Origin: Candidatus Saccharimonadota bacterium
Lineage (GTDB): Bacteria > Pseudomonadota > Gammaproteobacteria > Enterobacterales > Enterobacteriaceae
Direction of reading: 5' to 3'
Assembly (NCBI GenBank): GCA_000217635.1
Contig: CP001817.1
Coordinates: 1 to 32,000, forward strand
DNA: 32,000 nt
Program-made: the position numbers and the translations under genes
Shown here: piece after piece, positions 1 to 21,070 of the stretch
Layout of the letters: each line of letters begins with the position of its first letter
Numbering within the stretch: the first letter of the stretch is position 1
Notes under the pieces: model-generated
What the model saw: the letters and a program-made list of their open reading frames with translations, nothing else
Database searches by the model: none
What the model was told of the DNA's origin: nothing

Positions 1-1938
1 ATGGGAAATCAGATTCAGAAAACGACAGTGATTGTGGTAGGTGGCGGGCATGCTGGTACAGAAGCTGCCTATGCATCTGCTCGTATGGGGGTTAAAACGC
101 TATTAATAACTCAAAATATTAGTACGGTAGGAGCGCTTTCTTGTAATCCTTCTATTGGAGGTATTGGTAAAAGTCAATTAGTAAAAGAGATTGATGCTAT
201 GGGAGGTTTAATGGCTCTTGTGGCTGATTATTCAGGGATACAATTTAAAATCCTTAATTCTAGCAAGGGAGCTGCAGTTCGTTCTACACGTGCTCAAGTT
301 GATAGACAGTTGTATAAGAAAAATTTACAATATTTTTTAAAATTACAAAAAAATCTTCAGCTAATTGAAGCTGAAGTTTCTGATCTTATTATTAAAGATA
401 GAATTGTGCGTGGAGTTAAAGTAAATGATAACTGTGTTATTTTAAGTCGATCAGTGATATTAACCACTGGGACTTTCTTAAATGGAAAAATATTTACTGG
501 TTTAAAAGAACATTTAGGAGGACGTATCTATGAAAAACCTTCGAATCTATTAGCAAATAAATTAAAAAATTTTCCGTTTCGTTTTGGTCGTTTAAAAACC
601 GGAACACCACCAAGATTATTAGGTAGTAGTATTAATTTCCAATTGTTAGAAGAACAGAAAGGTGATTCTCCGGTCCCATTTTTTTCTTTTTTAGGATTTA
701 ATATCAATCATCCTGAACAAATTCCTTGTTATATGACATATACAAACGATTGTACACATTCGATAGTTCGTTCTAATTTAAATTTTAGTCCTATGTATAC
801 AGGTTCTATTGTTGGTTTTGGGCCTCGGTACTGCCCTTCTATAGAAGATAAGATTGTTCGTTTTTCAAAAAAAATAGACATCAAATTTTTTTTAGAGCCG
901 GAAGGATTGGATTGCAAGGTTTATTATCCTAATGGTATATCAACAAGTTTACCTTTATGTATACAAAAAAAATTTATAAAAACTATAGTAGGTCTAGAAA
1001 ATGTTGAAATTACTCAGCCAGGTTATGCAGTAGAGTATGATTATTTTGACCCGCGGGATTTAAAAATGACCTTAGAATCTAAAATTATAAAAAATTTATT
1101 TTTTGCAGGACAGATTAACGGAACTACTGGATATGAAGAAGCTGGGTCTCAAGGTTTATTGGCAGGAATCAATGCTGCGCTTTATGTTTTAGAAAAAAAA
1201 CCGTGGTATCCGCGTAGAGATGAGGCTTATATGGGTGTTTTAGTGGATGATTTATGTAATAAAGGTACTACTGAACCATATCGTATGTTTACATCTCGTG
1301 CAGAGCATAGATTGCTTTTGAGAGAAGACAATGCAGATTTTCGTTTAACAAAGATTGCTTATAAATTTGGTTTGATATGTCAAAATAGGTGGAAACGTTT
1401 TTGTGATAAAAAAAATTTTATTGCTGATGAGCATAGATTTTTAAAAAAAAGTATAATTTCAAAAAATAAATTAGATGCATATTGTACTAATAATAATATT
1501 TCAATTAGGATTTCTAGTGATATTACTGCTTTTGATTTTTTACGTAGACCAGGCATTTCTTATGGATTTATTATGAATTTATTAAATCGACCGATGAGTT
1601 TTTTATTAAAAAATTCAGAAGATATTGTTGAATTAGAAGCACAAATAAAATATTCAGGTTATATAATTAGACAAAAAATAGAAATTGAAAAACAAAAAAA
1701 ATTTGAATCAGTTAAATTACCTGTCAATTTAAACTATAAAAAAGTACCAGGTTTATCTAATGAGGTTTATATAAAATTAAATGAGTATAAACCGATCACT
1801 TTAGGACAGGCATCTCGTATATCTGGAATTACCCCAGCTGCAATTTCTATTTTATTAATTTTTTTAAAAAGAATGGTATTTTATTTTTTAATATTTACTT
1901 TAACTTTAATAAAAAATATACTATATTATATGGTATAA
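1..1938 (+). CDS. mnmG: tRNA uridine 5-carboxymethylaminomethyl modification enzyme MnmG (GidA)
   Basis: 645-aa ORF starting at ATG at position 1. It has the FAD-binding motif [10 protein letters not shown] and is colinear with E. coli GidA throughout ([41 protein letters not shown]). The last ~22 codons do not align with GidA; see the finding on the A5 tract at 1866-1870. Confidence 0.95.
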
Positions 1939-2015
1939 TTTTTTTGTATTTTTATTAGCTTTATTTTTATTAAATATATAAGAAATATATTTATGAAGAG
2001 TAGTATTATTAAAGA

Positions 2016-2045
2016 TCGGCAGGTTTTTTCCTACCGAATTTTTAT
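2016..2045. terminator. Candidate bidirectional terminator hairpin between convergent mnmG and gyrB
   Basis: GC-containing island in an AT-rich spacer: tcggcagg (2016-2023), loop tttttt, cctaccga (2030-2037). This gives an 8-bp stem. The 2020/2033 pair is a C-A mismatch in the plus-sense RNA and a G-U wobble in the minus-sense RNA. The plus strand continues with atttttat. Confidence 0.35.
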
Positions 2046-2089
2046 AATTATATTTGATTAATATATGATTCTTATTATTTGTATTTTTT

Positions 2090-4567
<2,478 letters not shown>

Positions 4568-4625
4568 TTAAAATTTATTTATATTTATCTTTTTTATAGA
4601 TTTTTAATTTTTTAAATAATATATG

Positions 4626-5732
4626 TTATAGTCGTAAAGGCATAATTACGTAATAAATATTTTTTTCTTCTAACGATTGAATTTGAATTTTTACAACAGG
4701 AATATCTAAAATAAAATAAATAATTTTGCTTGCTAAAGTATTCAAAACATCTAGTAAATAGAATACATTAATAGAAAATTCAATTTTTTTATTATTATAT
4801 TGAATTTTAAAGGAATCTGAAGATTCTTCGTCTTCTTGATTGTTTGATCGTATTTGTAATAGATTATTATAAAATTTTAAGTATATTCCTTTAAAATTAA
4901 TATCACATAAAATAGAAGTACGTAATAAAGATTTTTTTATTTGTGTAAGTGGAATTGGAATTCGTTGCATAGGGTTAATTAAGATAACATCTTGATAATC
5001 AGGAAATTTTCCATCTATTAATTTAGTAATAAGTATTATATTTTTAATATAAAATAAAATTTGGTTTTGATTGATAAAGATTCGTATTAGATCTTCTTTT
5101 TCTTCTAATAATTGATATAATTCAATAATGCTTTTTTTACTTAAAATTATTGAAAATGAAGTGACTTTGATATTTATTTTTTTCTTATACATTGCTAAAC
5201 GATGACCATCTGTAGCTACTCCATATAAATAACCATTATGGTACTCTAATAATAAACCGTTTAAAGAGTTTCGGATATCATGATTAGCTATAGAAAATCG
5301 AGTAAAAAAAATTATTTTTTTAAGTAAATTTTGTGATATGTTAATCTCGTTTTTTTCAGAATTTTTTTGAAATTTTGGAAAATTTTTTATAGACAATGTC
5401 ATTAAATAAAAAATAGTATTTAATATTTGGATTTTTATTTTTTTATTAACTAAATGAAAATTTAAGTTAGTGTCTTTAGGTGCATTTCGACAAATATGTA
5501 ATATTTTTTTTCCGGAAATACTAATATTACCTGATTGAAAAAATTGGTAGTTTTTATGGTGTATAGAAATATTCATTTCGACTTCTAAATTAGATGCTGT
5601 TAAATATAGTCTTTTTTGATTTACATCTATTATGATATTTTCTAAAATAGGAAAAATAGGATTTTTTGTAATTACATTAATAATTTTTTTGATATATGGT
5701 AATAGTATTTCTTTTTTTATGATGAATTTCAT
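4626..5732 (-). CDS. dnaN: DNA polymerase III beta sliding clamp
   Basis: 368-aa ORF colinear with E. coli DnaN (366 aa): MKF..., ATDGHRLA, KLIDGKFPDYQ, and C-terminal YVIMPLRL. It lies immediately downstream of dnaA, as in the conserved dnaA-dnaN operon. No recF follows it. Confidence 0.95.
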   Translation of the reverse strand: MKFIIKKEILLPYIKKIINVITKNPIFPILENIIIDVNQKRLYLTASNLEVEMNISIHHKNYQFFQSGNISISGKKILHICRNAPKDTNLNFHLVNKKIKIQILNTIFYLMTLSIKNFPKFQKNSEKNEINISQNLLKKIIFFTRFSIANHDIRNSLNGLLLEYHNGYLYGVATDGHRLAMYKKKINIKVTSFSIILSKKSIIELYQLLEEKEDLIRIFINQNQILFYIKNIILITKLIDGKFPDYQDVILINPMQRIPIPLTQIKKSLLRTSILCDINFKGIYLKFYNNLLQIRSNNQEDEESSDSFKIQYNNKKIEFSINVFYLLDVLNTLASKIIYFILDIPVVKIQIQSLEEKNIYYVIMPLRL

Positions 5733-5762
5733 AGTATTATGAGGTTAATTGATAAGATAAAT

Positions 5763-7112
5763 TTAAAAAATCATGATGAATTTTTTTATTTTTTTAGATA
5801 ATTCTTTTATTTTTCTGCAAGCATGTAGTACGGTGGTATGATCTTTTCCACCAAATGCGATACCGATTTCTGACAAGCTGTGGTTAGTCAATTTTTTTAC
5901 TAAAGCCATAGCTATTTGTCGAGGTTGTGCTATTGATCGTGTTCTTTTTTTTGATAACATATCTGACATTTTTATACTAAAATATTTAGATACTGATTTT
6001 TGAATGTTCTTTATCGTTATTTTTTCTTTTTGACAAATTAATAAATCTTGCAAGGTACTTTGAACGAGTTCTATATTAATATTTTTTTGATTAAATATAG
6101 AGTGGTTTTGAAGTTTATTAAGAATACCTTCTAATTCTCTGACATTCGAACATAATTTTGTTGCTATGAATTGAGCTATTGTATAAGATAACTTTATTTT
6201 TCTTTCTGCCGCTTTATATAATAGAATAGCTATTCTAGTATTTAAGTCAGGTGGGTTAATTGAAATAGTTAATCCCCAGCTAAACCGTGATTTTAAGCGA
6301 TCCGCCATACCATTAATATCTTTTGGATAACGATCTGAAGTTAAAATGATTTTTTGGTCGTGATCAAATAAGGTATTAAAAGTATGAAATAATTCTTCTT
6401 GAGACCGCTCTTTATTAGAAAAAAATTGAATGTCATCTATCATTAATGCATCTACAGATCGATAATATTTTTTAAATTCTTCAATAGAATTATTTTTTAT
6501 TGATTTTACCATATTTGCACAAAAACGTTCGGAATGGATATAAATAACTTTTGCAGTATTGTTATTTTCTAAAATAAAATTTCCAATAGCGTGTAAAAGA
6601 TGGGTTTTTCCTAAACCAGTATTTCCATATAAAAATAATGGATTATATGAATTTTTAAGTTTTGCTAGCTGATAAGAAGAATATCGTGCTAATCGATTTG
6701 ATTCTCCTTCAATAAAATTATTGAAACAGTATTTTTTATTAATTTCTGTATGATAATATGATTTTATATAGTGAATATTATAGTTAAAATGTTTTTTGTG
6801 TATTTTTTGTTGATTTATTATATTATATTTTGAGTAATAAGTATGAGTAGTAATTAAATGATCAGTAGAAATATTTTCAATTTGTAAAGTTAATGGAATA
6901 TTTTTTTTTTTGACCAAATTTATATAATAAATTTTTAAAATAGTGTATATACTTGTTTTTAACCCAATCCAAGACAAAATGATTTGGTGCAAATAAATAT
7001 AGAGAATTTTTTTTGATTTCACTCGCAGTGGACGAATCCACATACTAAATTCTGTAGGTAAAAGTTTTTTTTGTAAATGAGTAAGACATTTTTTCCAAAT
7101 TGCAAGAGACAC
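5763..7112 (-). CDS. dnaA: Chromosomal replication initiator DnaA (open ORF, but ~36 codons of domain I are read out of frame between two poly(A) tracts)
   Basis: 449-aa ORF with a GTG start, as in E. coli. It has the N-terminus [10 protein letters not shown]...[13 protein letters not shown]+ motifs ([37 protein letters not shown]) and the domain IV motif [15 protein letters not shown]. The conserved APNxFVLDWV block is encoded in a different frame between 7014 and 6901 (see finding). Confidence 0.95.
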
Positions 7113-7488
7113 GAATAGAGCTCCAAAAAAAATAAGATAAAGTAAATTAGAATATATTTATTTTTAAATATTACAAATATATATGACTATTAAAAATATT
7201 ATTCAAAGATAAAAAGTTATCTATTATTTTAATTTAATTAGATAATTTTTAAAATTAAATTGTTTTTTTTAATAGTTCTTTAAAAATATTTTTAAATTTT
7301 GATAATTTAAAAATTTATTAAAATTATAAGTATTTAATTTATTTTTTGAATTTATATTAATTTAATTTTTAATAATGCATAATATTTAGATGTATATATA
7401 GTATTTTGTACGATATTAAAAATTTCAAATATATCCTAAGTTAAGTATATGTTATTAGTATATTGATTTATTAGAAGGATTTTAGCAT

Positions 7489-7623
7489 ATGAAACGTACT
7501 TTTCAACCATCAAAGATTAAGCGAGCTCGAACACACGGGTTTCGTACGCGTATGTCGACGAAAAATGGTCGTCATATTTTATCTCGTCGTCGCATTAAAT
7601 CTCGTATTCGATTATGTGTTTAA
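7489..7623 (+). CDS. rpmH: 50S ribosomal protein L34
   Basis: This gene is not in the ORF track because it is too short. ATG at 7489 gives [44 protein letters not shown] (44 aa), with TAA at 7621-7623. This is close to E. coli L34. A Shine-Dalgarno aagga lies at 7475-7479. The position upstream of rnpA is conserved. Confidence 0.95.
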
Positions 7624-7655
7624 TGTTTATTGTTTTTAATAATTTTTAAAATTAT

Positions 7656-7991
7656 ATGTATAAATTTTTTTTTAAAAAAAGTCGATTGTTATCTACTTTA
7701 CAATTTCAACATGTTTATAAGCGGCATATTAAAATAATTAGACCGGAATTTATTTATTTAAGTAGAATAAATTATCTGAATTTTCCTAGATTAGGAATAT
7801 CTATATCAAAAAAGAATATAAAACGATCGCATGATCGAAACCGAATTAAACGTCTTATTCGAGAAAATTTTCGCTTAAAACAAAATAAGTTAATGTCTAT
7901 GGACATAGTTATAATTGTTAAAAAAAATTTAATTTTTCAGAACAATAAATTTATTATACATAGATTAGAAAATTTATGGATATATAAATAA
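7656..7991 (+). CDS. rnpA: RNase P protein component
   Basis: 111-aa basic ORF with the conserved RNR motif region (KKNIKRSHDRNRIKRLIRENFRL). It is colinear with E. coli RnpA and follows rpmH. Confidence 0.9.
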   Translation: MYKFFFKKSRLLSTLQFQHVYKRHIKIIRPEFIYLSRINYLNFPRLGISISKKNIKRSHDRNRIKRLIRENFRLKQNKLMSMDIVIIVKKNLIFQNNKFIIHRLENLWIYK

Positions 7992-8026
7992 TTTATTTTT
8001 TGATATAAGAGAAAGGTAAAATTCGG

Positions 8027-8067
8027 AGACTTCTGTTTTTTTGTAAAAGAGGTCTATTTTTTATTTT
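8027..8067 (+). terminator. Weak hairpin plus T-run between rnpA and yidC (possible attenuator or terminator)
   Basis: agacttct (8027-8034) pairs with agaggtct (8048-8055): 8 bp including one U-G wobble, with a 13-nt loop. It is followed by attttttatttt. It occupies the spacer where yidD sits in E. coli; no yidD ORF is present. Confidence 0.25.
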
Positions 8068-8080
8068 AAAAATTTAGATA

Positions 8081-9721
8081 ATGAGAATATCTATGATTAA
8101 CTGTCGATATTATGGTCGATTATTGTTATTATTTTTGTTGTTTTTTTTGTATTTTTATAGGTTTTTTTCAAAAAAAAGTATTTATATTAGTAAAAAAAAT
8201 AGTGTTTTTCATGAATATATAAAAAATTTTTCTAAAATATCACCAGATCAAGAAAAATCTCAATTAATTAATGTAAAAACCGATGTTCTATCCTTAGATA
8301 TTAATTTATTAGGCGGTAATATTGAATGCGCCGAATTATTAAATTATAAAAAAAGTCTAAATAGTTCAGAGTTTTTTACATTATTAAATAATAAAAAATT
8401 TTTTTATAAAACTAATAGTGGAATTCTTGTTAAAAAGAATTCTAATCATATCGGAAAAAATAGTAAGATTTTTTATTTTGTTTCATCTGTTATAAATAAA
8501 TTAAAAGAAAATCAAAATAAAATAAAAGTTTGTTTAACTTCTCGTGAAAAAAATGGGATTTCTCATAAAAAAGTTTTTATTTTAACGAGAGGATCATATG
8601 CAGTAGAAATAAAACATTATATTTTTAATCGTACCAATAAAACAATTGATGTAGTAGTATTTGGAGAATTACAACAAAACCCTGCGCTAATTAAAAGTTA
8701 TAATATCTTACAGGGTTTGTTTAATTTACAGATGTTTAGAGGCATTTCATATTCAACAGATGCTAATAAATATGTTAAAGTAAGTTTTAATAAGTTAAAA
8801 GATATTGTAGATGTTGTTGTGAAAACTACCCAAGGATGGATAGCAATGCAACAGCAGTACTTTTTAACTGCTTGGGTACCAAAATTTTCGAGTAGTTATA
8901 CAATTTATCTACATAAAATATTTGATTATTTTATATCTATTGGTTTTTTGTCTGATAATAAAAGAATTGCACCTCATTCATCTTATGTAACTTCTTCTAC
9001 GATTTGGATAGGACCAAATTTACAAAAACATATTTCTTTATTATCTAAAAATACCAGTTGTATGATGGATTATGGATGGTTATGGTTTATTTCAAAACCA
9101 TTATTTCAATTATTAAGTTTTTTTTATAATATATTTAAAAATTGGGGTATTTCTATAATACTAATTACATGTTTTATAAAAACAATGACATATTCATTAA
9201 CAAAATCACAATATTTAGCAACGATAAAAATAAAAACTTTACAACATAAAGTAGAAGCTATAAAAGAAAAATTTTTTAATGATACTGAAAAAATCCATAA
9301 AGAAATATTATTATTATATAAAAATGAAAATATTAATCCATTAAGCGGGTTTATGCCAACTTTAATTCAAATGCCTATTTTTTTAGCATTATATTACGTT
9401 TTAATCTCTGCAATTGAATTAAGACATGCACCATTTTTATGGTGGATTCAAGATTTATCTAGTTATGATCCGTATTTTATATTACCACTTTTAACAGGTT
9501 TTAGTATATTAGGTATGCAAATTAGTAATGAAGTAAATCAAGAATCTTTACCGGATAATAAATTTCTTATATTTTTTTCTGTTTTATCATCGTTATTTTT
9601 TTTATGGTTTCCAGCTGGTCTTGTTTTATATTATCTCGTTAATAATGTGGTTACTATTATTCAACAACATTTTATAAAAAAATTTTTTGTCAACAATATA
9701 GATAAAAAGTATAATACATAA
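8081..9721 (+). CDS. yidC: Membrane protein insertase YidC
   Basis: 546-aa ORF colinear with E. coli YidC (548 aa): VKTDVL, RGSYAVE, GWIAMQQQYF, DYGWLWFISKPLF, IQMPIFLALYY, FFLWFPAGLVLYY. The start could instead be the ATG at 8093. Confidence 0.93.
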   Translation: MRISMINCRYYGRLLLLFLLFFLYFYRFFSKKSIYISKKNSVFHEYIKNFSKISPDQEKSQLINVKTDVLSLDINLLGGNIECAELLNYKKSLNSSEFFTLLNNKKFFYKTNSGILVKKNSNHIGKNSKIFYFVSSVINKLKENQNKIKVCLTSREKNGISHKKVFILTRGSYAVEIKHYIFNRTNKTIDVVVFGELQQNPALIKSYNILQGLFNLQMFRGISYSTDANKYVKVSFNKLKDIVDVVVKTTQGWIAMQQQYFLTAWVPKFSSSYTIYLHKIFDYFISIGFLSDNKRIAPHSSYVTSSTIWIGPNLQKHISLLSKNTSCMMDYGWLWFISKPLFQLLSFFYNIFKNWGISIILITCFIKTMTYSLTKSQYLATIKIKTLQHKVEAIKEKFFNDTEKIHKEILLLYKNENINPLSGFMPTLIQMPIFLALYYVLISAIELRHAPFLWWIQDLSSYDPYFILPLLTGFSILGMQISNEVNQESLPDNKFLIFFSVLSSLFFLWFPAGLVLYYLVNNVVTIIQQHFIKKFFVNNIDKKYNT

Positions 9722-9808
9722 TTTAATAATTATATTAAGAATTATTGAATTATTAAAAATGTAGAAATAATTACTAAAATATACTTCTTTTAAATATTAA
9801 ATATAATT

Positions 9809-11173
9809 ATGAATATAAGTGATACAATTATAGCTCCTGCGACAGCAGGAGGAAAAGCTGGAATAGGAATTATTCGTATATCAGGTGGTGATGTTAGAAA
9901 TATTATTAAAAAAATTTTAAAAATTTCTTTAAGAGAACGGTATGCTCATTTTTTTACCTTTTTTGATTTAAATGGTAAAATTGTTGACAATGGTATTGCT
10001 ATTTTTTTTGCTTCTCCTCGTTCATTTACGGGAGAAGATATGTTAGAATTACAAGGACATGGTAATCCTTTGATATTAGATATGTTAATAAAAAATATTT
10101 TATTAATTAATAATGTACGATTAGCGCGGCCTGGGGAATTTTCTGAGCGAGCTTTTTTAAATGAAAAAATTGATCTTATACAAGCAGAAGCTACTATGGA
10201 TTTAATTCATGCTCAATCTAAATTAGCAATTCAAGCATCGTTAAAATCTTTACAAGGATTTTTTTCTCAGTGTATTAATAAAATTTTTCAACGTTTAAAT
10301 AGTATTTATTCAAATATTGAAGCCGCGATAAATTTTCCGGAGGATATAAATGATAATATTTTATTAAAAAATATTGATAATAAAATATATGATGTTATTT
10401 CTTTAATAAAAAAAGTAAAAAAGAAGGCCGTTCAAGGAAATTTATTACGGGAAGGGATAAAAATAGTGATTACCGGCACTCCTAACGTTGGTAAATCAAG
10501 TTTATTAAATAGATTACTAAATAAGAATGTTGCTATTGTGACAAATTTAGCAGGTACAACCCGTGATCTTATACGGAGTTATATCAATATAAAGGGGTTA
10601 ACTTTTGAATTAATTGATACAGCAGGATTATGTGATAGTAATAATGTTATTGAAAAAATTGGAATCAAATTAGCAAAAGATGTAATTAAAAAAAGTAATC
10701 ATGTTTTTTTAGTATTAGATAGTTCAAAAAAAGATGAATTTAATGAGTTAATAATTAAAAATTATATTAAAAAATTAAATAAAAATCAAATAATTACATT
10801 AATTTTTAATAAGATAGATTTAACAAAAAAAAAATCGTGTATTACAAGATATAAAAATAAATATACATCAATTTATGTATCTGTAAAATCTGGTTTGGGT
10901 ATAGATTTATTACGAAAATATATGCGAAGTTTTTCAAGGTCTATTGATAGTTCAGAAAATTTGTTTTTAGCACGTCGTAGACATCTTCAAATATTAACTA
11001 AAACTTTAAAATTATTAGAAGATGGTTTAAAAAATTGGATTGATTTTCAAACGATTGAGTTGTTATCTGATACAATTAAATTAGCAAATACATTAATATC
11101 AGAAATTTCTGGAAAGTTTATTAATCAAGATATATTAGAAAAATTTTTTTCTGAATTTTGTATTGGAAAATAA
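9809..11173 (+). CDS. mnmE: tRNA modification GTPase MnmE (TrmE/ThdF)
   Basis: 454-aa ORF, the same length as E. coli MnmE. It has SFTGEDMLELQGHG, the G-domain motifs GTPNVGKSSLLN / DTAG / NKID, and the invariant C-terminal FCIGK. Confidence 0.95.
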   Translation: MNISDTIIAPATAGGKAGIGIIRISGGDVRNIIKKILKISLRERYAHFFTFFDLNGKIVDNGIAIFFASPRSFTGEDMLELQGHGNPLILDMLIKNILLINNVRLARPGEFSERAFLNEKIDLIQAEATMDLIHAQSKLAIQASLKSLQGFFSQCINKIFQRLNSIYSNIEAAINFPEDINDNILLKNIDNKIYDVISLIKKVKKKAVQGNLLREGIKIVITGTPNVGKSSLLNRLLNKNVAIVTNLAGTTRDLIRSYINIKGLTFELIDTAGLCDSNNVIEKIGIKLAKDVIKKSNHVFLVLDSSKKDEFNELIIKNYIKKLNKNQIITLIFNKIDLTKKKSCITRYKNKYTSIYVSVKSGLGIDLLRKYMRSFSRSIDSSENLFLARRRHLQILTKTLKLLEDGLKNWIDFQTIELLSDTIKLANTLISEISGKFINQDILEKFFSEFCIGK

Positions 11174-11226
11174 ATTTTAAAAATATCAAATTTTTTATAG
11201 AATAAGAAATATATAACTGATATTTT

Positions 11227-11299
11227 TGCCCGGAGGCGGAATTGAACCGCCGACACGGGGATTTTCAGTCCCCTGCTCTACCAACTGAGCTATCCGGGC
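11227..11299 (-). tRNA. tRNA-Phe (anticodon GAA)
   Basis: The reverse complement reads GCCCGGATAGCTCAGTTGGTAGAGCAGGGGACTGAAAATCCCCGTGTCGGCGGTTCAATTCCGCCTCCGGGCA. It forms a complete cloverleaf: acceptor GCCCGGA/TCCGGGC, D stem GCTC/GAGC, anticodon stem GGGGA/TCCCC with loop CTGAAAA, and T stem GGCGG/CCGCC. It is very close to E. coli tRNA-Phe. The CCA end is not encoded. Confidence 0.95.
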
Positions 11300-11309
11300 T
11301 TACAAAAAT

Positions 11310-11339
11310 ATTAAAGCATTAAATTAGAAAGTTTGTCAA
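11310..11339 (-). promoter_or_regulatory. Candidate sigma-70 promoter for tRNA-Phe
   Basis: On the minus strand there is a perfect -35 TTGACA (11339-11334), an 18-nt spacer, and a -10 TTTAAT (11315-11310). This would start transcription a few nt upstream of the mature tRNA 5' end at 11299. Promoter-like hexamers are common in AT-rich DNA, so this is tentative. Confidence 0.35.
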
Positions 11340-11479
11340 GTTTTTTATTTTAAAAATTATTTAAATATTTTTAATAAAGAATGATTTTTATCATTAATCT
11401 ATTAAATTGGTCTTTTAGTAATATTATTAAAAATATTTTTTTTAAAAAATATAAAAATATAATAAAAATTAAGAACACA

Positions 11480-11510
11480 CCCTTGAAATTCTCTTTAGTC
11501 ATCCATATAT
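11480..11510 (+). promoter_or_regulatory. Sigma-32 (heat-shock) type promoter of groES-groEL
   Basis: CCCTTGAAA (11480-11488), then 13 nt, then ATCCATAT (11503-11510). The sigma-32 consensus is CTTGAAA-N13/14-CCCCATNT, and the spacing matches the E. coli groE heat-shock promoter. It is a GC-containing motif in an otherwise A/T spacer, ~90 nt upstream of the groES ATG. Confidence 0.6.
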
Positions 11511-11597
11511 GATAAGTTATAGACATATATTTTTATTTTTTATAATATAGGGTATAAAAAATATTTTATTACTAATAATCAAATAAGGATTTTGTAA

Positions 11598-11891
11598 ATG
11601 AAAATTCGTCCATTGCACGATCGGATTATTATTAAGCGTCATGAAAAAGAATCAAAATCTGCAGGCGGAATTGTTTTAACAGGTGCAGCGGCAGGAAAAT
11701 CAACTCGCGGAGTTGTTTTATCTGTTGGTAAAGGACGTGTTTTAGATAATGGAAGTTTAAAAAAATTAGACGTTAAAGTTGGAGACGTGGTAATATTTAA
11801 CGAAGGGTATGGTGCAAAAACAGAAAAAATTGATAATGAAGAAGTTTTAATTTTAACAGAAAGTGATATATTAGCAATTGTTGAAGAGTAA
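11598..11891 (+). CDS. groES: Co-chaperonin GroES
   Basis: 97-aa [17 protein letters not shown]...AGGIVLTG...ILAIVE, colinear with E. coli GroES. A Shine-Dalgarno aagga lies at 11585-11589. Confidence 0.97.
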
Positions 11892-12042
11892 AGAATTATA
11901 TATGAATAAGAATTTTTAAAAATATAAAAATATTATTTTGTTATTATCAAATAAAATATTTTTAAAAAATAAATCTGATTTATAAATTTTAATATTAATA
12001 TTATAGAAATTTCTTAAATTTATAATTTATTAATTTTTTTGA

Positions 12043-13713
<1,671 letters not shown>

Positions 13714-13793
13714 TTATTTTTTTGGTTATTTATTAAAAATATTGTATAAGTTTATATTATTGTACTATTTATTTTTATTAAAACGTTACAATA

Positions 13794-13846
13794 TCCTTGT
13801 TCTCGTTTTCTCTTAAAAAGAGGACAAGGAGTTTATTTTTATTTTT
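13794..13846 (+). terminator. Rho-independent terminator of the groESL operon
   Basis: tccttgttctc (13794-13804) pairs with gaggacaagga (13820-13830): an 11-bp stem with one U-G wobble and a 15-nt loop. It is followed directly by gtttatttttattttt, and lies 80 nt after the groEL stop. Confidence 0.6.
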
Positions 13847-13870
13847 GATTTGCATATTTAGGATTTTTTT

Positions 13871-14444
13871 ATGCCATCTTTTTTTGGTAGTAATTTAAAA
13901 ATAGGAAATAAAATTTTAATTAAAAAAACCATATGAAGTGTTACATCGAGAATTTGTTAAACCAGGAAAAGGACAAGCATTTGTTCGGTTAAAAATTAGA
14001 GAATTATTAACAGGAAAATTATTATTAAAAACCTTTAAATCTACAGATACTTTTTTATTAGCAAATATAACTGTCATTGATGTTCTTTTTTTATATAAAG
14101 ATATAGATGGGAAATCGTGGATATTTATGAATCAAAATACATTTAATCATATATCTGTTCATCAAGATAAATTATTTGGTTCTGAAAAATGGTTATTTAA
14201 TAATATTCAATGTACAATAACTTTATGGGATAATATTCCAATTATAGTTCGGGTATCTAATTTTATTCATCTAGAAGTAAAAGAAGTTGAATTATCTGTA
14301 AAAGGTGATACGATAAATGTATCGAGTAAACTTGTAAGATTAGTGACAGGCACTAAGATTCGAGTTCCTTTATTTATACAAAAAGGAGATTTTATAAAGA
14401 TAGACACAAGAGCAGGTATTTACATATCCCGTTCCATTATATAA
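13871..14444 (+). pseudogene. efp: Elongation factor P, interrupted by a frameshift in an A7 tract (possibly rescued by slippage, or an assembly error)
   Basis: ATG at 13871 gives MPSFFGSNLKIGNKILIKKTI*, which aligns to E. coli EF-P residues 1-19. The rest of the protein (PYEVLHREFVKPGKGQAF... to 14444) continues in the +1 frame immediately after aaaaaaa (13922-13928). Removing one A gives a 190-aa EF-P (E. coli 188 aa). The ORF track shows only the 168-aa 3' part, from GTG at 13938. Confidence 0.85.
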
Positions 14445-14490
14445 ATTGTGTAATTTGTTTTTTGATATTATATATAGATAATAATATATC

Positions 14491-15189
14491 TTAGTATTCA
14501 TGTCCTGTGATATTTTTTCTATAACTACTCCAGTCAAATGTTAACCATAAACTATGTCCTAATCGCATTCTATCAATAACGCGTTCACCTAATAGTTTTT
14601 TTATTCCAAAATAATCTAAATTGGATAACATTCCGGTAGATTTTTTTGTAGATGATCGTCTATCTATTATTTGGTTAATAATAATTTTTTCATATCGTGA
14701 TTTTATTTGCACTCCAATTTCATCAATTATTAATAGATCTACTTTACATAATTTGTGAATTAATTCTTCTTCTGTAGTTTTACAAGAACTACTAAATGTT
14801 TTTTTTATAGAAGACATTAGGTCTGCAACTGTAATAATTAATACACTATTACCATTTAAAATTAAATAATTTCCAATTGCTGCAGCTAAGTGATTTTTTC
14901 CTGTTCCTGGATTTCCGGAAAAAATAAAATTAGCTATACTATTTTTAAATTTTTTGCATATTTTTGAGAAGCTTGTAAAGCTTTTTTGTGACCTGCATGT
15001 TTTTATATTATAATTTTCAAATGAACAATTAATATATAATTCTCGAATTCCTGATCGTCCTAAAATTTTTTGCATTTTCATTGCCTGATTATTACGTAAA
15101 ATAGATATAGAGGATATTTGTCCTTGTTGTTGATTCCATAATAATAAATCTTTATCATTATAAAATTTTGGTGTGATATAGTGCGGCAT
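14491..15189 (-). CDS. dnaC: DNA replication protein DnaC (helicase loader)
   Basis: 232-aa ORF colinear with E. coli DnaC from its residue ~15 onward: MPHYITP vs MPAHIKP, RSGIRELYINCSFENY, the Walker A motif FSGNPGTGKNHLAAAI, DLLIIDEIG, and the C-terminal RMRLGHSLW...TGHEY. A possible 11-codon N-terminal extension from ATG 15221 lies in another frame (see finding). Confidence 0.9.
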   Translation of the reverse strand: MPHYITPKFYNDKDLLLWNQQQGQISSISILRNNQAMKMQKILGRSGIRELYINCSFENYNIKTCRSQKSFTSFSKICKKFKNSIANFIFSGNPGTGKNHLAAAIGNYLILNGNSVLIITVADLMSSIKKTFSSSCKTTEEELIHKLCKVDLLIIDEIGVQIKSRYEKIIINQIIDRRSSTKKSTGMLSNLDYFGIKKLLGERVIDRMRLGHSLWLTFDWSSYRKNITGHEY

Positions 15190-15559
15190 TATATTTTTTA
15201 GTTTTTTAAAAAATTTTTCATATATTTTATATTTTTCTATAATATTTTTATGAAATATTAATAAATATTTTTTAAAAATATATAGATCCTATATGTAATA
15301 AATATATATTTTTATAAAAATTAAATAGTCTTTAGTATCTTTTTTTATAATTTTTATTATATATATTAAGAATAGATTAAGTAAACAATAGATTTTTTAT
15401 TATATTAATATTAATATTAAGATGTATAAGTGAGTTTAACAAAATAATTTATTTATATGATATAATAAAAATATTATAAATTAATTTTATTTAAAATATT
15501 TTATGGGTGTTTTTTATTTCTTATGATACTTTCATAAAGTATGTATTTTATTTTTTACC

Positions 15560-16123
15560 TTAATTACAAATAAATAATGTACATATAACATTACCAATTT
15601 TTTTTTTTTTATTAAAGTCCAATTATGATTTAATTTTTTTTTATAAATTTTTTACATTGTTCAATATAAATAATAGATTTTTTATGTAACCAATTATTTT
15701 TTTTAATAATATAATGGTATTTTTTAATAATTTAAAATCGTGAAATGGAGGATCTAAATATATAATATCAAATGGTTTTCCGTTTTTTTTTAACCACGTT
15801 ATAGTGTCTGTATTAAATGTTAATACTGAATTAATTGAAAAATTTTTGATAGTATTAAGAAGTGCGTAGAATAATTTTTTGTTTATTTCTAGTGCTGTTA
15901 CTGAATGCGCTAAACGAGAAATTGATTCAATACTTAAATTACCGCTACCAGCAAAACAATCTAAACAATTTTTGTTCTTTATGTAGGGATTTAACCAATT
16001 AAATAGTGTTTCTTTTACACGATTTCCTGTAGGTCTGATATTAAAATTTTTTATAGAATGTAATACTCGACCGCGAAATATACCACTTATAATGCGAATT
16101 CTTTTTTTATATTTATTTTGCAT
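15560..16123 (-). pseudogene. rsmD: 16S rRNA m2G966 methyltransferase RsmD (YhhF), broken at three successive poly(A) tracts
   Basis: The 160-aa ORF (16123-15641) carries RPTGNRVKETLFNWL, the SAM motif LDCFAGSGNLS and DPPF. After LLKK the RsmD alignment continues only by changing frame at A8 (15697-15704), A9 (15634-15642) and A13 (15598-15610). This gives NNWLHKKSIIYIE... / LNHNWTLIKKKK / IGNVICTLFICN*, compared with E. coli NGWLADEALIYVE...ANWSLHREKVAGQVAYRLYQRE. Confidence 0.8.
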
Positions 16124-16176
16124 TTTTTTAAACTTATTGTATGTAATAAAATAATAAAATTTTAAGGAATAATATT

Positions 16177-17225
16177 TTGGGTATTAAAAAAAATTTTTTT
16201 TTGAAATGGATTAATTTTAAAAAAAAGATTCTAAATCTACAATTTGTCAGTCAAATCAAAAAAAAAATATAAAAAATTCTGTTTTTTCTATATTATCAGA
16301 AAATAAAATTATAAATAAGTTAAAAGATTATTTTATAAATACAAAAAAAATATTTACAGAAAAAATAAATAATATTTTTTTTAAAAAATCATTAAATCAA
16401 GAAACATTTAATGATATAGAAAAATTATTATTATTATCTGATTTTGGAATATCTACTACAGAAAATATTCTTTTAAAATTTAAAAAAAAAATAGATATTA
16501 ATAGGGTAACAGATCCAAAGAAAGCAATTTTGATTTTTAAAAATCAATTATTAAATATTCTAAAAAAAGTTAATTCAATTCCATTAACTGATAATTTTAC
16601 TTCTTTTCCTCATATTATTTTAGTAATAGGTGTTAACGGTGTTGGAAAAACTACAACTATTGCAAAATTAGCATATTATTATAAAACGCATGGTAAATCA
16701 ATAATGTTATCTGCAGGTGATACATTTCGAGCAGCAGCAATTGATCAAATACTTATATTAGGTAAAAAATATGAGATCCCTGTTTTTTCAAAACCTTTTG
16801 GAACAGATCCGGCTTCTGTGATATTTGATTCGATTCGAGAAGCCAAAAATAAAAAATCAGATATATTAATAATAGACACAGCAGGACGTTTGCATAATAA
16901 ATCGCATTTATTACAAGAATTAAAAAAAATTTCTCGTATAATAAAAAAATTTGATATATCAGCTCCTCATGAAGTAATTTTAGTTCTTGATGCGTGTATT
17001 GGTCAAAACTCTATTCAACAAACTAAATTATTTCATAAAAATGTTCCAATTAGTAGTATTATTATAACTAAATTGGATGGTACAGCTAAAGGAGGGATTA
17101 TCTTTTCTATCATAGATCGATTTAAAATTCCTATATGTTTTATCGGGACTGGAGAAAAAATTACTGATTTAAAAAAATTTAATAATGAATTATTTATTAA
17201 TGAATTTTTTAAAACTGAATTATAA
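16177..17225 (+). pseudogene. ftsY: Signal recognition particle receptor FtsY, with a frameshift in a poly(A) tract near the 5' end (possibly rescued by slippage, or an assembly error)
   Basis: TTG at 16177, with Shine-Dalgarno aagga at 16164-16168, gives MGIKKNFFLKWINFKKK..., matching the E. coli FtsY N-terminus MAKEKKRGFFSWLGFGQK. This frame stops at 16270-16272. The N and G domains (FNDIEKLLLLSDFGISTT..., GVNGVGKTTTIAKLA, DTAGRL, TKLDGTAKGG) are in the -1 frame, which is open from 16221 to 17225. The overlap region contains A8 (16219-16226) and A10 (16258-16267). Confidence 0.85.
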
Positions 17226-17466
17226 GTGATATTTTTACATTGTAAATATATATTCATATTTATTGAATCACATTAAATTTTAAAAAAAATATATTCGTAA
17301 TAAGTTTAAATAGGCATGATATCTTTATAATTTTTTAAAATACCTAATTAATATTTATTATCTTAAAATATTTTTATAAAATATTTTTTAATTCAATTAT
17401 ATAATTTAAAAAATATTTTTTTATTTTTAATAGATTACCCTTTTATTAGTATATGGTTATAGAGTA

Positions 17467-18342
17467 ATGAAAAATATAAAAAATAAAGTATTAACTTCTG
17501 GTTTTTTAAATATTGGAAGTTTAGATACATATGTGCGAGTAGCTAATTCTTTTCCTATGTTAACAGAAAAACAAGAAAAATCACTTCTTAATAAACTTTT
17601 TTTTCGTAATGATATAGAGGCAGTAAAATTATTAATTTTATCTCATCTTCGTTTTGTAATATATATAGCTAAAAATTATTCAGGTTATGGATTACCAAAA
17701 GCAGATTTAATTCAAGAAGGAAACATTGGATTAATGAAAGCTATTCGACGTTTTAACATTAATTTTAATGTTAGATTAGTATCATTTGCGGTACATTGGA
17801 TAAAATCAGAGATTCATGAATATGTATTAAGAAACTGGAGAATTGTTAAAGTAGCGACAACAAAATCTCAGCGTAAGCTTTTTTTTAATTTAAGAAAAAA
17901 AAAACGTTTAGGTTGGTTTAATACTGATGAAATTAATATTGTTGCTACGCAATTAGGAGTTACTCAACGAGAAGTGCAAGAAATGGAATCTCGTATGTCG
18001 ACTCAAGATATAACATTAGATTATTTACCTAACGATGTAAATTGTGATTATGTATCTAATCGTAATTTAATGCCTACGATTTACTTAGAAGATAAAAAGT
18101 CAAATTTTGCATTAGATATAGAGCAAAATAATTGGGAAAGACATGCTACTCATAAATTAAGCGATGCATTATTAATTTTAGATGAAAGGAGTCAACAAAT
18201 TATTAAGCGCCGTTGGTTATATCAAGATCACAATAAAATTACGTTACAATCACTTGCACGAGACTATGGAATTTCAGCTGAACGTGTGAGACAGTTAGAA
18301 AAAAATGCAATGAAGAAATTAAAATTAGCTATTGAAGCGTAA
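17467..18342 (+). CDS. rpoH: RNA polymerase sigma-32 factor RpoH
   Basis: 291-aa ORF colinear with E. coli RpoH: [22 protein letters not shown], the RpoH box [41 protein letters not shown], and the C-terminal [22 protein letters not shown]. Confidence 0.96.
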
Positions 18343-18794
18343 TTATAAATTAGTTATTAAGATTTTATAAATAAAAATATTCTTGTATTTTTTATATTAA
18401 AATAGTATTTTTTATTGAAATATATAAAATTTTAAAAAAAATGTATTTTTATATAGTATTATAACAAATATATATGATTTAAATGTTTTTTTTTATATTT
18501 TATTAAATTTTATGTGATTTAAGATATAATTAAGTTTTATATTTTTTTTTTTTATATTTTTTAATAATATTTATTAAGGTTGTTTTATTTTCTAAAATCA
18601 CATACTATTACTATATACTATATATATATTGAATAAAGATTTTTTTTATTTTTTTATTTCAAATATATATTCTATATAACTAAAATTTTTTAAAAATTTT
18701 TTAAACAATTAATAATATAATGTTATGTTTTTATTTTTTAAAATAATAAAAATATATTGATGTCCAGATAATATACTAAATTAGGAAAATATAT

Positions 18795-21070
18795 ATGAAT
18801 ATTAAAAATCATATACTCGGGTTTCCTAGAATTGGTTTGCATCGTGAGCTAAAGTTTGCTCAAGAGAATTACTGGTCTGGAAAATCTACCTTAAATGAAC
18901 TTTTATTAGTAGGAAAAGATATAAGAAAAAAAAATTGGGAATTACAAGTTAAAAATGGTATAGATATTGTTCCGGTGGGTGATTTTTCGTGGTATGATCA
19001 TATATTAAATACAAGTATGATGTTAGGAAACATACCAGAAAGACATTGTTGTAATCAAGAAATGCCAACTATTGATACTTTATTTCGTGTTGCGCGAGGA
19101 GTAAATTCAACTGAAGATACATGTTCTGCTTCAGAATTGACAAAATGGTTTAATACAAATTATCATTATATAGTACCAGAATTAAAAAAAATAAAATTTA
19201 AATTATCTTGGATGCAGATTTTTGAAGAATGTGATGAAGCATTATCATTAGGATTTACAATTAAACCGGTATTAATTGGACCGATAACATATCTTTGGTT
19301 AAGTAAAATTGTAGGTGAAGATTTTGATAAATTAGATTTACTTGATGATTTATTACGAGTGTATTGTGATATATTAAGTGAATTTAAAAAAAGAAATATT
19401 AAATGGGTGCAAATAGATGAACCAATTTTAACATTAGATTTACCTTCTGTATGGAAAAAATCTTTTAAAAAAGCTTATAATTATTTACATGGGGAACAAA
19501 AGATTTTATTAACCACCTATTTTGGTGATATAAAGCATAATTTTGATATTGTTAAATTATTACCAGTTGATGGTTTACATATTGATTTGGTATCTGGAGA
19601 ATATAATTTATTTGATTTAAATAGATATATTGATAAAAATACATTACTTTCATTAGGTATAATTAATGGGCGTAATATTTGGCGATCTAATATTTTAGAA
19701 TGGTTTAATATTTTGCAATCTTTTATGAATATTAGAGATACTTTTTGGATAGGTTCGTCTTGTTCATTATTACATGTTCCAATAGATATTAATGTTGAAG
19801 ATAATTTAACTGATCTTGTTAAGCAATGGTTTTCTTTTGGATTACAAAAATGTAAAGAGTTATCATTATTATCTAATATTTTAAATAATCAACATAAATC
19901 TACAAGCCAATTAAAAGAATGGATTAAACCAATAGCATCACATCAGTCATCTACATTAGTTAATAATTTTATTGTGCAAAAACGTGTTATGAATATTTCT
20001 TCTAAAGAAACAAAAAGAAATAGCTCGTATGCGGTTCGTTCTATAGAACAAAAAAAATCTTTAAAATTGCCTATTTTACCTACCACAACAATTGGCTCTT
20101 TTCCTCAAACATCAGATATCAGAAAATTACGTTTAGATTATAAAAATAATCATATTAGCCAAGATGATTACAATAAAAAATTAAATTACATATTAAAAAA
20201 TATTATTATACAACAGGAAAAATTTGGTCTTGATGTATTGGTTCACGGAGAACCAGAACGTAATGATATGGTAGAATATTTTAGTGATTATTTAGAGGGA
20301 TTTGTTTTTACAAATTATGGTTGGGTACAAAGCTTTGGTTCTCGTTGTGTAAAACCACCAATTATAGTGGGTGATATAAATCGTATTACACCAATAACAG
20401 TGCCATGGTCTGAATATGCGCAGTCTTTAACTAATAAACCCGTTAAAGGTATGTTAACTGGACCTGTGACTATTTTATGTTGGTCTTTTCCGCGTGAAGA
20501 TATATCAAAAGAAATAATTGCTAAACAAATTGCTTTAGCATTACGTGATGAAGTGAAAGATTTAGAAAGTATTGGCATTAAGATTATTCAAATTGACGAA
20601 CCAGCATTAAGAGAAGGTTTGCCATTACGTCAATGTCAATGGGATAATTATTTAAAGTGGGCAATAGAATCATTTAAATTATGTTCTTCAGGTGTTAAAG
20701 ATAGCACACAAATTCATACACATATGTGTTATTGTAAGTTTAATGATATTATGTCAGCTATTAGTTCATTAGATGTAGATGTAATTACAATTGAAACTTC
20801 TAGATCGGAGATGGAATTATTAAAATTTTTAAAAAATTTAATTATCTTAATGAAATTGGTCCTGGGGTTTACGATATTCATTCTCCAAATATTCCTACAG
20901 TAAAATGCATAGAAAAACGTTTATTAATGGCGTTAAAATTTATTTCTAAAGAAAGATTATGGGTTAATCCAGATTGTGGTTTAAAAACTCGTACTTGGTT
21001 AGAAACTTCATTATCACTACAAAATATGATACAAGCTGTACAAAATATTCGTAAAAATATTAATAATTAA
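18795..21070 (+). pseudogene. metE: Cobalamin-independent methionine synthase MetE, with a frameshift in an A6 tract 56 codons before the end (possibly rescued by slippage, or an assembly error)
   Basis: The 702-aa ORF (18795-20903) is colinear with E. coli MetE up to ...[17 protein letters not shown]. After aaaaaa (20831-20836) the alignment continues in the +2 frame: [22 protein letters not shown]...[15 protein letters not shown]... to TAA at 21068-21070. One extra A gives 758 aa (E. coli 753 aa). Confidence 0.88.

Follow-up and report, generated by a model that had tools for sequence, protein, structure and literature searches.

Frame shifts at A and T runs in the reference genome of Buchnera aphidicola from Cinara tujafilina: probable homopolymer miscounts in the deposited sequence

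Frameshifted cell-wall genes of Buchnera and the hisH gene of Blochmannia are reportedly rescued by slippage at poly(A) tracts (Tamas et al. 2008), and Buchnera genes are said to have been inactivated during gene erosion by the deletion of a single base in such a tract (Moran, McLaughlin and Sorek 2009). In pyrosequencing a homopolymer is read as one pulse of light, with counts that are unreliable past about eight bases and tend to fall short. Three Blochmannia genomes carry four to eight homopolymer-frameshifted genes per whole genome, and conserved poly(A)/poly(T) frameshifts have been annotated as functional in Illumina-sequenced Buchnera (pheA; Periphyllus and Chaitophorinae; bioRxiv 10.1101/2022.08.28.505559). 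Here we analyse the first 32,000 nt of the chromosome of Buchnera aphidicola (Cinara tujafilina), henceforth the window, in which an earlier note had described frame switches at poly(A) tracts in at least six conserved genes. We consider it highly probable that these frame events are 454 homopolymer under-calls in an unpolished assembly, combined with imprecise frame-restoring edits, and not features of the organism.

Frame events in the window

The window is the start of the record CP001817.1 (444,925 bp, still at version.1), with MnmE, L12 and GroEL 100% identical and a G+C content of 22-32% (genome, 23%). Its genes are ordered mnmG, gyrB, dnaN, dnaA, rpmH, rnpA, yidC, mnmE, groES, groEL, efp, dnaC, rsmD, ftsY, rpoH, metE, rpoC, rpoB, rplL, rplJ, rplA, rplK, and the nearest other genomes are collinear with it and about 81% identical in DNA. 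As relatives we used Buchnera of Cinara confinis (LT667503.1; labelled L086 and L095), two metagenome or Logan lineages (L087/L088 and L093), a more distant Logan contig (L091, SRR33594963) and Buchnera of C. piceae (L092). Sites were read by tblastn and three-frame translations against Escherichia coli K-12 orthologues, and each was aligned as DNA to the collinear relatives, giving support from E. coli and four or five Cinara Buchnera. Hidden events were sought by a sliding 24-residue scan of all frames, by three-way DNA alignment and by an exhaustive scan of paired single-base edits, in which control scans of the relatives gave score gains of 19-21 and gains below about 21 were discarded.

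Within 21 kb we found 16 robust and about 22 probable frame events, affecting 9 of the 16 protein genes; the robust events fall in 18.9 kb of coding DNA. This is about twice the number listed in the earlier note, all ten of whose runs are present where it placed them. It had missed a third shift in dnaA (5789-5795), the compensated pairs other than that in dnaA, and the pairing of every extra base with a missing one. Up to seven such pairs, with one base short and one base extra no more than 110 nt apart, are hidden in mnmG, gyrB (two), dnaA, yidC, dnaC and metE, where the open reading frame (ORF) stays open and 6-35 codons within it are conserved only out of frame. The pairs in dnaA, gyrB, dnaC and mnmG are robust, those in yidC and at the second gyrB position are probable, and the mid-gene pair in metE is possible (score gains in Table 1). 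In rpoC, rpoB and rplLJAK we detected no frame events, even on comparison with close relatives. After fourteen single-base edits, seven proteins differ by only 0-2 residues from the lengths in the relatives, and the corrected frames are free of stop codons.

A/T runs of at least five bases make up about 11% of coding bases, yet they hold nearly all events (20 or more of 22, P ~6e-15). Among runs with a true length of at least 9, about 10 of 23 (~43%) are wrong by one, compared with about 1 of 45 (~2%) runs of 8, and five of the primary events consist of an A9 written as A8. Each event is a 1-nt change (once a 2-nt change) in the length of an A or T run, and the primary events are almost all deficits. 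Relative to the tract length of about 9 or more that frequent slippage calls for, the runs at the sites are partly suitable (A8 and A11 in dnaA; A8, A9 and A13 in rsmD; A8 in ftsY, gyrB, mnmG and yidC) and partly too short (T5 in metE, A7 in efp, A6 and A5 in dnaC, A7 in dnaA, A6 and A7 in gyrB). Each of the seven extra-base events has a deficit no more than 110 nt away in its own gene (chance probability 7e-7, or 3e-4 for the four robust ones), and the unpaired events are confined to the first 20 or so codons of a gene or to its last 10-25%.

No such event occurs across 41.9 kb of these genes in the Illumina-type assemblies of L087, L091 and L092 (Poisson P ~4e-16), and C. confinis (L086) has every gene at full length. 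At every site that is shifted in the window, C. confinis (L086/L095), L087, L091, L092 and L093 are in frame. When the 247 out-of-frame codons of the window are read in the conserved frame, the ratio of non-synonymous to synonymous substitution rates (dN/dS) is 0.21 and no stops occur, compared with a ratio of 0.15 for the other 2390 codons. Purifying selection therefore extends downstream of the shifts, an outcome that an artefact equally predicts, and neither the relaxed constraint nor the further lesions expected of a fresh pseudogene were seen after the first frameshift. By our own estimate, the events would on average take up under about 12% of the branch that began at the separation from C. 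confinis.

Sites in individual genes

The sites are collected in Table 1, with runs named as they read on the coding strand.

Table 1. Runs at which frame events were assigned or proposed, and the ftsY 5' frameshift of the relatives.
Gene and run	Position	Strand	Pair score gain	Reading
mnmG A8	867..874	+	35	One base short; relatives AGCAAAAAT; first of a compensated pair
mnmG T8	886..893	+		One base extra; relatives T7; pairs with 867-874
mnmG A5, C-terminal tail	1866..1870	+		Proposed missing A: neither frame favoured; tail variable
gyrB A7	2341..2347	-	83	One base extra; relatives A6; pairs with 2398-2405
gyrB A8	2398..2405	-		One base short; relatives A9; deposited frame wrong over about 20 codons
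gyrB A8	2538..2545	-	27	One base short; relatives A9; probable second pair; conserved decapeptide in alternative frame
gyrB A6	2574..2579	-		Probable extra base; pairs with 2538-2545
dnaA A7	5789..5795	-		One base short; relatives G+A7; a C-terminal peptide of 14 residues in another frame
dnaA A11	6901..6911	-		One base extra; frame returns
dnaA A8	7007..7014	-	163	One base short; frame departs
yidC T8	8141..8148	+	28	One base extra; relatives T7; probable pair
yidC A8	8170..8177	+		Probably one base short; pairs with 8141-8148
efp A7	13922..13928	+		Junction between the N-terminal 19 codons and the remainder
dnaC A6-T3	14947..14955	-	72	One base short; L087 GAAAATTTT; pairs with 15000-15004
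dnaC A5	15000..15004	-		One base extra; HAGHKKALQASQKYAKN conserved in alternative frame only
dnaC A6	15202..15207	-		One base short; relatives A7; sets the conserved ATG (MKNF) apart from the remaining gene
rsmD A8	15697..15704	-		First 1-nt deficit; relatives A9 or G+A8
rsmD A9	15634..15642	-		Second 1-nt deficit
rsmD A13	15598..15610	-		Third 1-nt deficit, within the run or 3-5 nt upstream
ftsY A8	16219..16226	+		One base short; C. confinis A9; true ftsY shift site
metE A6 (short) and A6 (long)	20175-20180 and 20195-20200	+	21	Possible compensated pair; gain at the noise limit of the controls
metE T5	20825..20829	+		One base short; T6 in three relatives
ftsY 5' frameshift shared by relatives	L086 16258-16294; L087 16276-16308; L092 15550-15578			Window equivalent 16177-16209

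Within the mnmG pair the deposited reading is KIDIKF, and the conserved NRHQIF (E. coli NQHQIF) is found in the other frame. In the tail of the same gene, the alternative-frame LKKNGIL resembles LKKQGML of E. coli and the LKKN of the relatives; the relatives finish with LKKNTF or LKKSNF followed by a stop, and both window frames continue for 23-27 codons beyond that stop. For gyrB, an apparent 10-nt insertion was considered as proof of a real compensating mutation and rejected, the codons showing a simple change from A6 to A7. Between the A8 and A11 runs of dnaA the ORF is open and 34 codons of domain I are conserved solely in the other frame, and comparison with E. coli and the relatives agrees with the earlier proposal of one A to be added at the first run and one to be removed at the second. 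The C-terminal shift of dnaA, where the E. coli counterpart is IKEDFSNLIRTLSS, was exposed by tblastn with C. confinis proteins. The alternative frame of yidC reads FFCIFIGFFQKK, compared with FFCFFINIFQKN in the relatives.

In efp the first 19 codons (MPSFFGSNLKIGNKILIKK) indeed lie upstream in a different frame; the removal of one A is, however, not the only remedy, since the window is 2 nt shorter than the relatives at the junction (ATT ACA AAA AAA CCA) and the loss of one base or the gain of two restores the frame equally. The relatives begin dnaC with ATG AAA AAT TTT TTA AAA AAA CTA, MKNFLKKLKNIMP is conserved, and the evidence for a missing A at 15202-15207 is strong rather than weak. 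The three additions proposed for rsmD correspond to three separate 1-nt deficits. A shift in ftsY was correctly recognised, but the A10 run first named for it (16258-16267) is in frame, and the nearby A8 offered as an alternative is the site. Likewise, the shift in metE is real and leaves the last 82 codons, including the zinc-ligand motif NPDCGLK, in another frame, but the missing base belongs to a T5 run and not to the adjacent A6 (20831-20836). At the possible mid-gene pair in metE the alternative frame gives KIKLHIKK, compared with KIKAHIKN in the relatives. The association of the switches with A/T runs is thus upheld, but not their restriction to poly(A), as on the coding strand the metE site and two partner sites are runs of T.

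A frameshift of another kind is shared by the relatives at the 5' end of ftsY. An A8-T10 or A9-T8 cluster in C. confinis, L087 and C. piceae puts the conserved N-terminal peptide (FFLKWINF or FFSKLNVF) in a different frame from the start codon of ftsY; in one example, ATG TCR GAT AAT is followed by A8 T10 and the conserved LKWINFKKK goes on in another frame. The A9 of C. piceae must become A10, and its gene is recorded with 1040 nt for 346 residues, which agrees with the stated practice of those annotators, who take conserved homopolymer frameshifts to be rescued by slippage. At this run the window keeps its frame, with the ATG replaced by ATT and TTG as the next codon. The run in the relatives is the one credible case of slippage nearby, of an already recognised kind, and shows that slippage rescue, one of the two mechanisms offered in the earlier note, operates in this clade but not at the window sites.

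Several further observations were made along the way. Coding A/T runs drop from 53 of length 8 to 10 of length 9; we rejected this drop as a sign of further hidden under-calls, the listed events already accounting for the coding DNA. Coding-strand A runs far outnumber T runs at every length (41 versus 12 at length 8). Neither DnaA nor MetE has a WP accession in RefSeq, where DnaC (244 amino acids, MYEKFFKK) and FtsY (286 amino acids, MNNIFFKK) begin at non-canonical codons. In L091, the 243 nt between groEL and dnaC (11501-11742) contain no called efp, and efp has apparently been lost in one Cinara-type Buchnera lineage. The dnaA gene of C. piceae (L092, 5750-7386) is called at 344 amino acids and followed by a spacer of about 600 nt; no frame in this region matches residues 1-114 of C. 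confinis DnaA, and domain I-II seems to be lost or degenerate. In the window (1939-2089), as in L086, L087 and L092, mnmG directly adjoins the convergent gyrB with no atp operon between them, and their spacer carries a short inverted repeat rich in G+C (CGGCAGG TTTTTT CCTACCG), which resembles a terminator common to both genes. Just 3' of groEL (window 13795-13832, L091 11575-11620), the window and this distant relative have in common an imperfect hairpin (CCTTGTTCTC ... GGACAAGGAG), probably the groESL terminator.

Origin of the frame events

A major question is whether the events arose in the organism or in the record. Their pattern points to a process that is specific to this record, affects long homopolymers, under-counts and leaves no evolutionary trace, and pyrosequencing error fits all four properties. 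In the same laboratory, 454 FLX and Titanium were used on C. tujafilina bacteriocyte DNA, the co-resident Serratia was later polished with Illumina reads to correct its 454 reference, and another 2011 genome by the same first author was 454-only, with Newbler and Gap4 used for assembly; the present record probably has a 454-only origin as well. On this account, true A9, A10 and A14 runs would have been recorded as A8, A9 and A13, and shorter runs would occasionally have been miscounted. Since random error explains neither the pairing nor the lack of any uncompensated mid-gene shift, we infer an additional ORF-restoring step. When a well-known gene was split in its middle, a base would have been added at finishing or submission to a nearby homopolymer instead of the true site, yielding an open ORF with 6-35 codons out of frame; the paired extra bases would then be human or software edits. 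Errors in the first 20 or so codons of a gene, or in its final 10-25%, would have been left alone because a plausible ORF still resulted, and annotated as normal truncated proteins. Proteins of 449 (DnaA), 168 (EF-P), 232 (DnaC), 160 (RsmD), 231 (FtsY) and 702 amino acids (MetE) were indeed deposited as ordinary proteins (AEH39601-AEH39616), which argues that the depositors neither recognised nor verified the frameshifts.

The earlier note had set homopolymer under-calling beside slippage rescue of real indels and chosen neither. The former is favoured by the specificity of the events to this record, their absence from relatives, the lack of decay and the 454 background, and the latter lacks one of its defining properties, a frameshift conserved in relatives. 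Under-calling in its simple random version leaves the pairing of extra and missing bases unexplained, and a number of points weigh against an origin in sequencing errors and edits. The events are not independent of each other or of their position in the gene, as seen from the pairing, the bias toward gene ends and the clean rpoC-rpoB block. Across rpoC-rpoB-rplLJAK, none of 19 runs of at least 8 carries an event, compared with 12 of 50 (P = 0.03; for the clean rpoB-rpoC block, P = 0.03-0.05), and such a clean block is more natural under selection on real mutations than under random error; the pairing and the ends-only pattern, too, are expected from selection on real indels. Miscalls in the consensus at short runs (A4 to A5, T6 to T5, T4 to T3) are unusual with good 454 coverage. 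Three Illumina-sequenced relatives show, at the 5' end of ftsY, that real homopolymer frameshifts do occur in the clade. Finally, no second assembly or reads of this strain were found in the collections searched, which leaves the tract lengths without direct refutation, and two metagenome scans with patterns that span the sites in metE and dnaC and accept both run lengths gave no matches. Illumina HiSeq 2000 reads of the bacteriome of this aphid have been reported (Manzano-Marin and Latorre 2014, PMC4122931).

If the indels are instead real, Buchnera of C. tujafilina would have gone through a burst of single-base losses in A9-A14 runs in nine genes, including dnaA, gyrB, efp, ftsY and metE, with mid-gene lesions compensated by second-site gains of a single base within 20-110 nt, at the cost of short scrambled stretches of protein, and lesions at gene ends tolerated or rescued by RNA polymerase slippage that restores some transcripts. 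There is precedent for the mechanism: 12-50% of transcripts of endosymbiont genes are corrected at long poly(A) tracts, as summarised in a review that cites Tamas 2008, and a genome-wide survey of Buchnera found insertion errors to climb exponentially with run length. Runs of 8-13 make up about half of the primary sites, coding constraint is kept downstream of the shifts, and annotators treat the conserved ftsY 5' frameshift of the relatives (A8/T10 or A9) as slippage-rescued. The same survey, however, found no frame-restoring transcription error in Buchnera, and no frameshift of the window is common to any relative, all of which have in-frame runs at every site. Slippage of any use is not to be expected at sites as short as T5, A5, A6 and A7, the earlier note having already called A5-A7 tracts less likely to slip efficiently, and dnaA, dnaC and rsmD would each require several independent slips per transcript. 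The density of events is about 30 times that of documented cases, and reversion in a hypermutable long run should, we reason, beat compensation in a shorter one. Because selection could explain the pairing, the end bias and the event-free rpoB and rpoC, we retain slippage rescue as an unlikely alternative to 454 miscounts.

Real indels without rescue appear more improbable still; replication slippage would have eroded genes in a very recent burst, leaving efp, metE, rsmD, domain I and the C-terminus of dnaA and the N-terminus of ftsY as fresh pseudogenes or damaged genes. In Buchnera, gene inactivation reportedly begins as a rule with the loss of a single base from poly(A) (Moran et al. 2009), the aphid carries a co-obligate Serratia, and some of the functions are dispensable in the clade, efp being absent from L091 and the N-terminal domain of DnaA undetected in C. 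piceae L092. The shifted segments, however, have no non-synonymous excess and no stops, and the events would have to be confined to the short terminal part of the branch estimated above; 16-22 fresh events would have arisen simultaneously in 21 kb compared with none in the relatives; and metE, otherwise intact, serves a core symbiotic function as the final step in making methionine. Programmed ribosomal frameshifting on slippery A-rich codons is a further rival, runs such as A_AAA_AAG being classic slippery sequences. The corrections are nevertheless of mixed sign (+1 and -1) and sometimes several per gene, the sites are not conserved in relatives, several are T runs or very short, and alignments to the relatives showed no conserved downstream stimulator. 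We rejected this mechanism on the mixed signs, the non-conserved sites and the several corrections per gene, and give it next to no credence.

Significance and comparison with known systems

The frame events are most likely no biological feature, and their importance lies in the data quality of a reference genome: CP001817.1 still serves as reference and outgroup for Cinara Buchnera. If they are artefacts, the deposited DnaA, GyrB, MnmG, YidC, DnaC, EF-P, RsmD, FtsY and MetE are truncated or locally scrambled, and gene-loss calls, dN/dS values and metabolic reconstructions, for example of the intactness of methionine synthesis, may be distorted. Extrapolating about one event per kb suggests hundreds of errors genome-wide. 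A uniform re-annotation (PMC11193766) lists 394 coding sequences for C. tujafilina and 384 for C. confinis, genomes of near-equal size, with 78.5 kb and 68.1 kb, respectively, in one column; if that column gives non-coding length, the values fit many split or truncated genes across the genome. Were the indels real, slippage rescue would extend to core replication and translation genes together with frequent second-site compensation, and this combination of frameshift and local compensation would be far denser and more systematic than any described in endosymbionts. Junction peptides of EF-P, MetE and DnaA would mark the restored frame, for example KILIKKPYEVLH of EF-P.

Slippage-rescued genes of endosymbionts (Wernegreen et al. 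2010; Williams and Wernegreen 2010, PMC3017870) share with the window the occurrence in Buchnera, the shifts at A/T homopolymers and a remainder of the gene that is intact under purifying selection. In the documented cases each gene has a single indel, the tract measures about 9-12 and the shift is often common to several strains or species, whereas the window has up to three indels per gene in 9 of 16 genes, with half of the sites below 9 and none shared with relatives. The ftsY 5' frameshift of other Cinara Buchnera concerns the same gene and the same 60-nt region as a shift in the window, but in the relatives it directly follows the start codon and is common across species, whereas the window keeps its frame there and loses it at the following run (A8, 16219-16226). 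With single-base inactivation during gene erosion the window has in common the deficits of one A in runs and an eroding genome; there, however, downstream sequence decays and events build up slowly, in contrast to the absence of decay and the extreme, lineage-specific density seen here. Compared with 454 miscalls in unpolished AT-rich assemblies, the window differs in that its extra bases are all paired and no mid-gene shift is left uncompensated, which calls for curation or selection, and in that some sites are unusually short (A4, T4, T6). It shares with them the changes in A/T run length, the steep rise at runs of at least 9, the dominance of deficits and the absence from Illumina-sequenced relatives.

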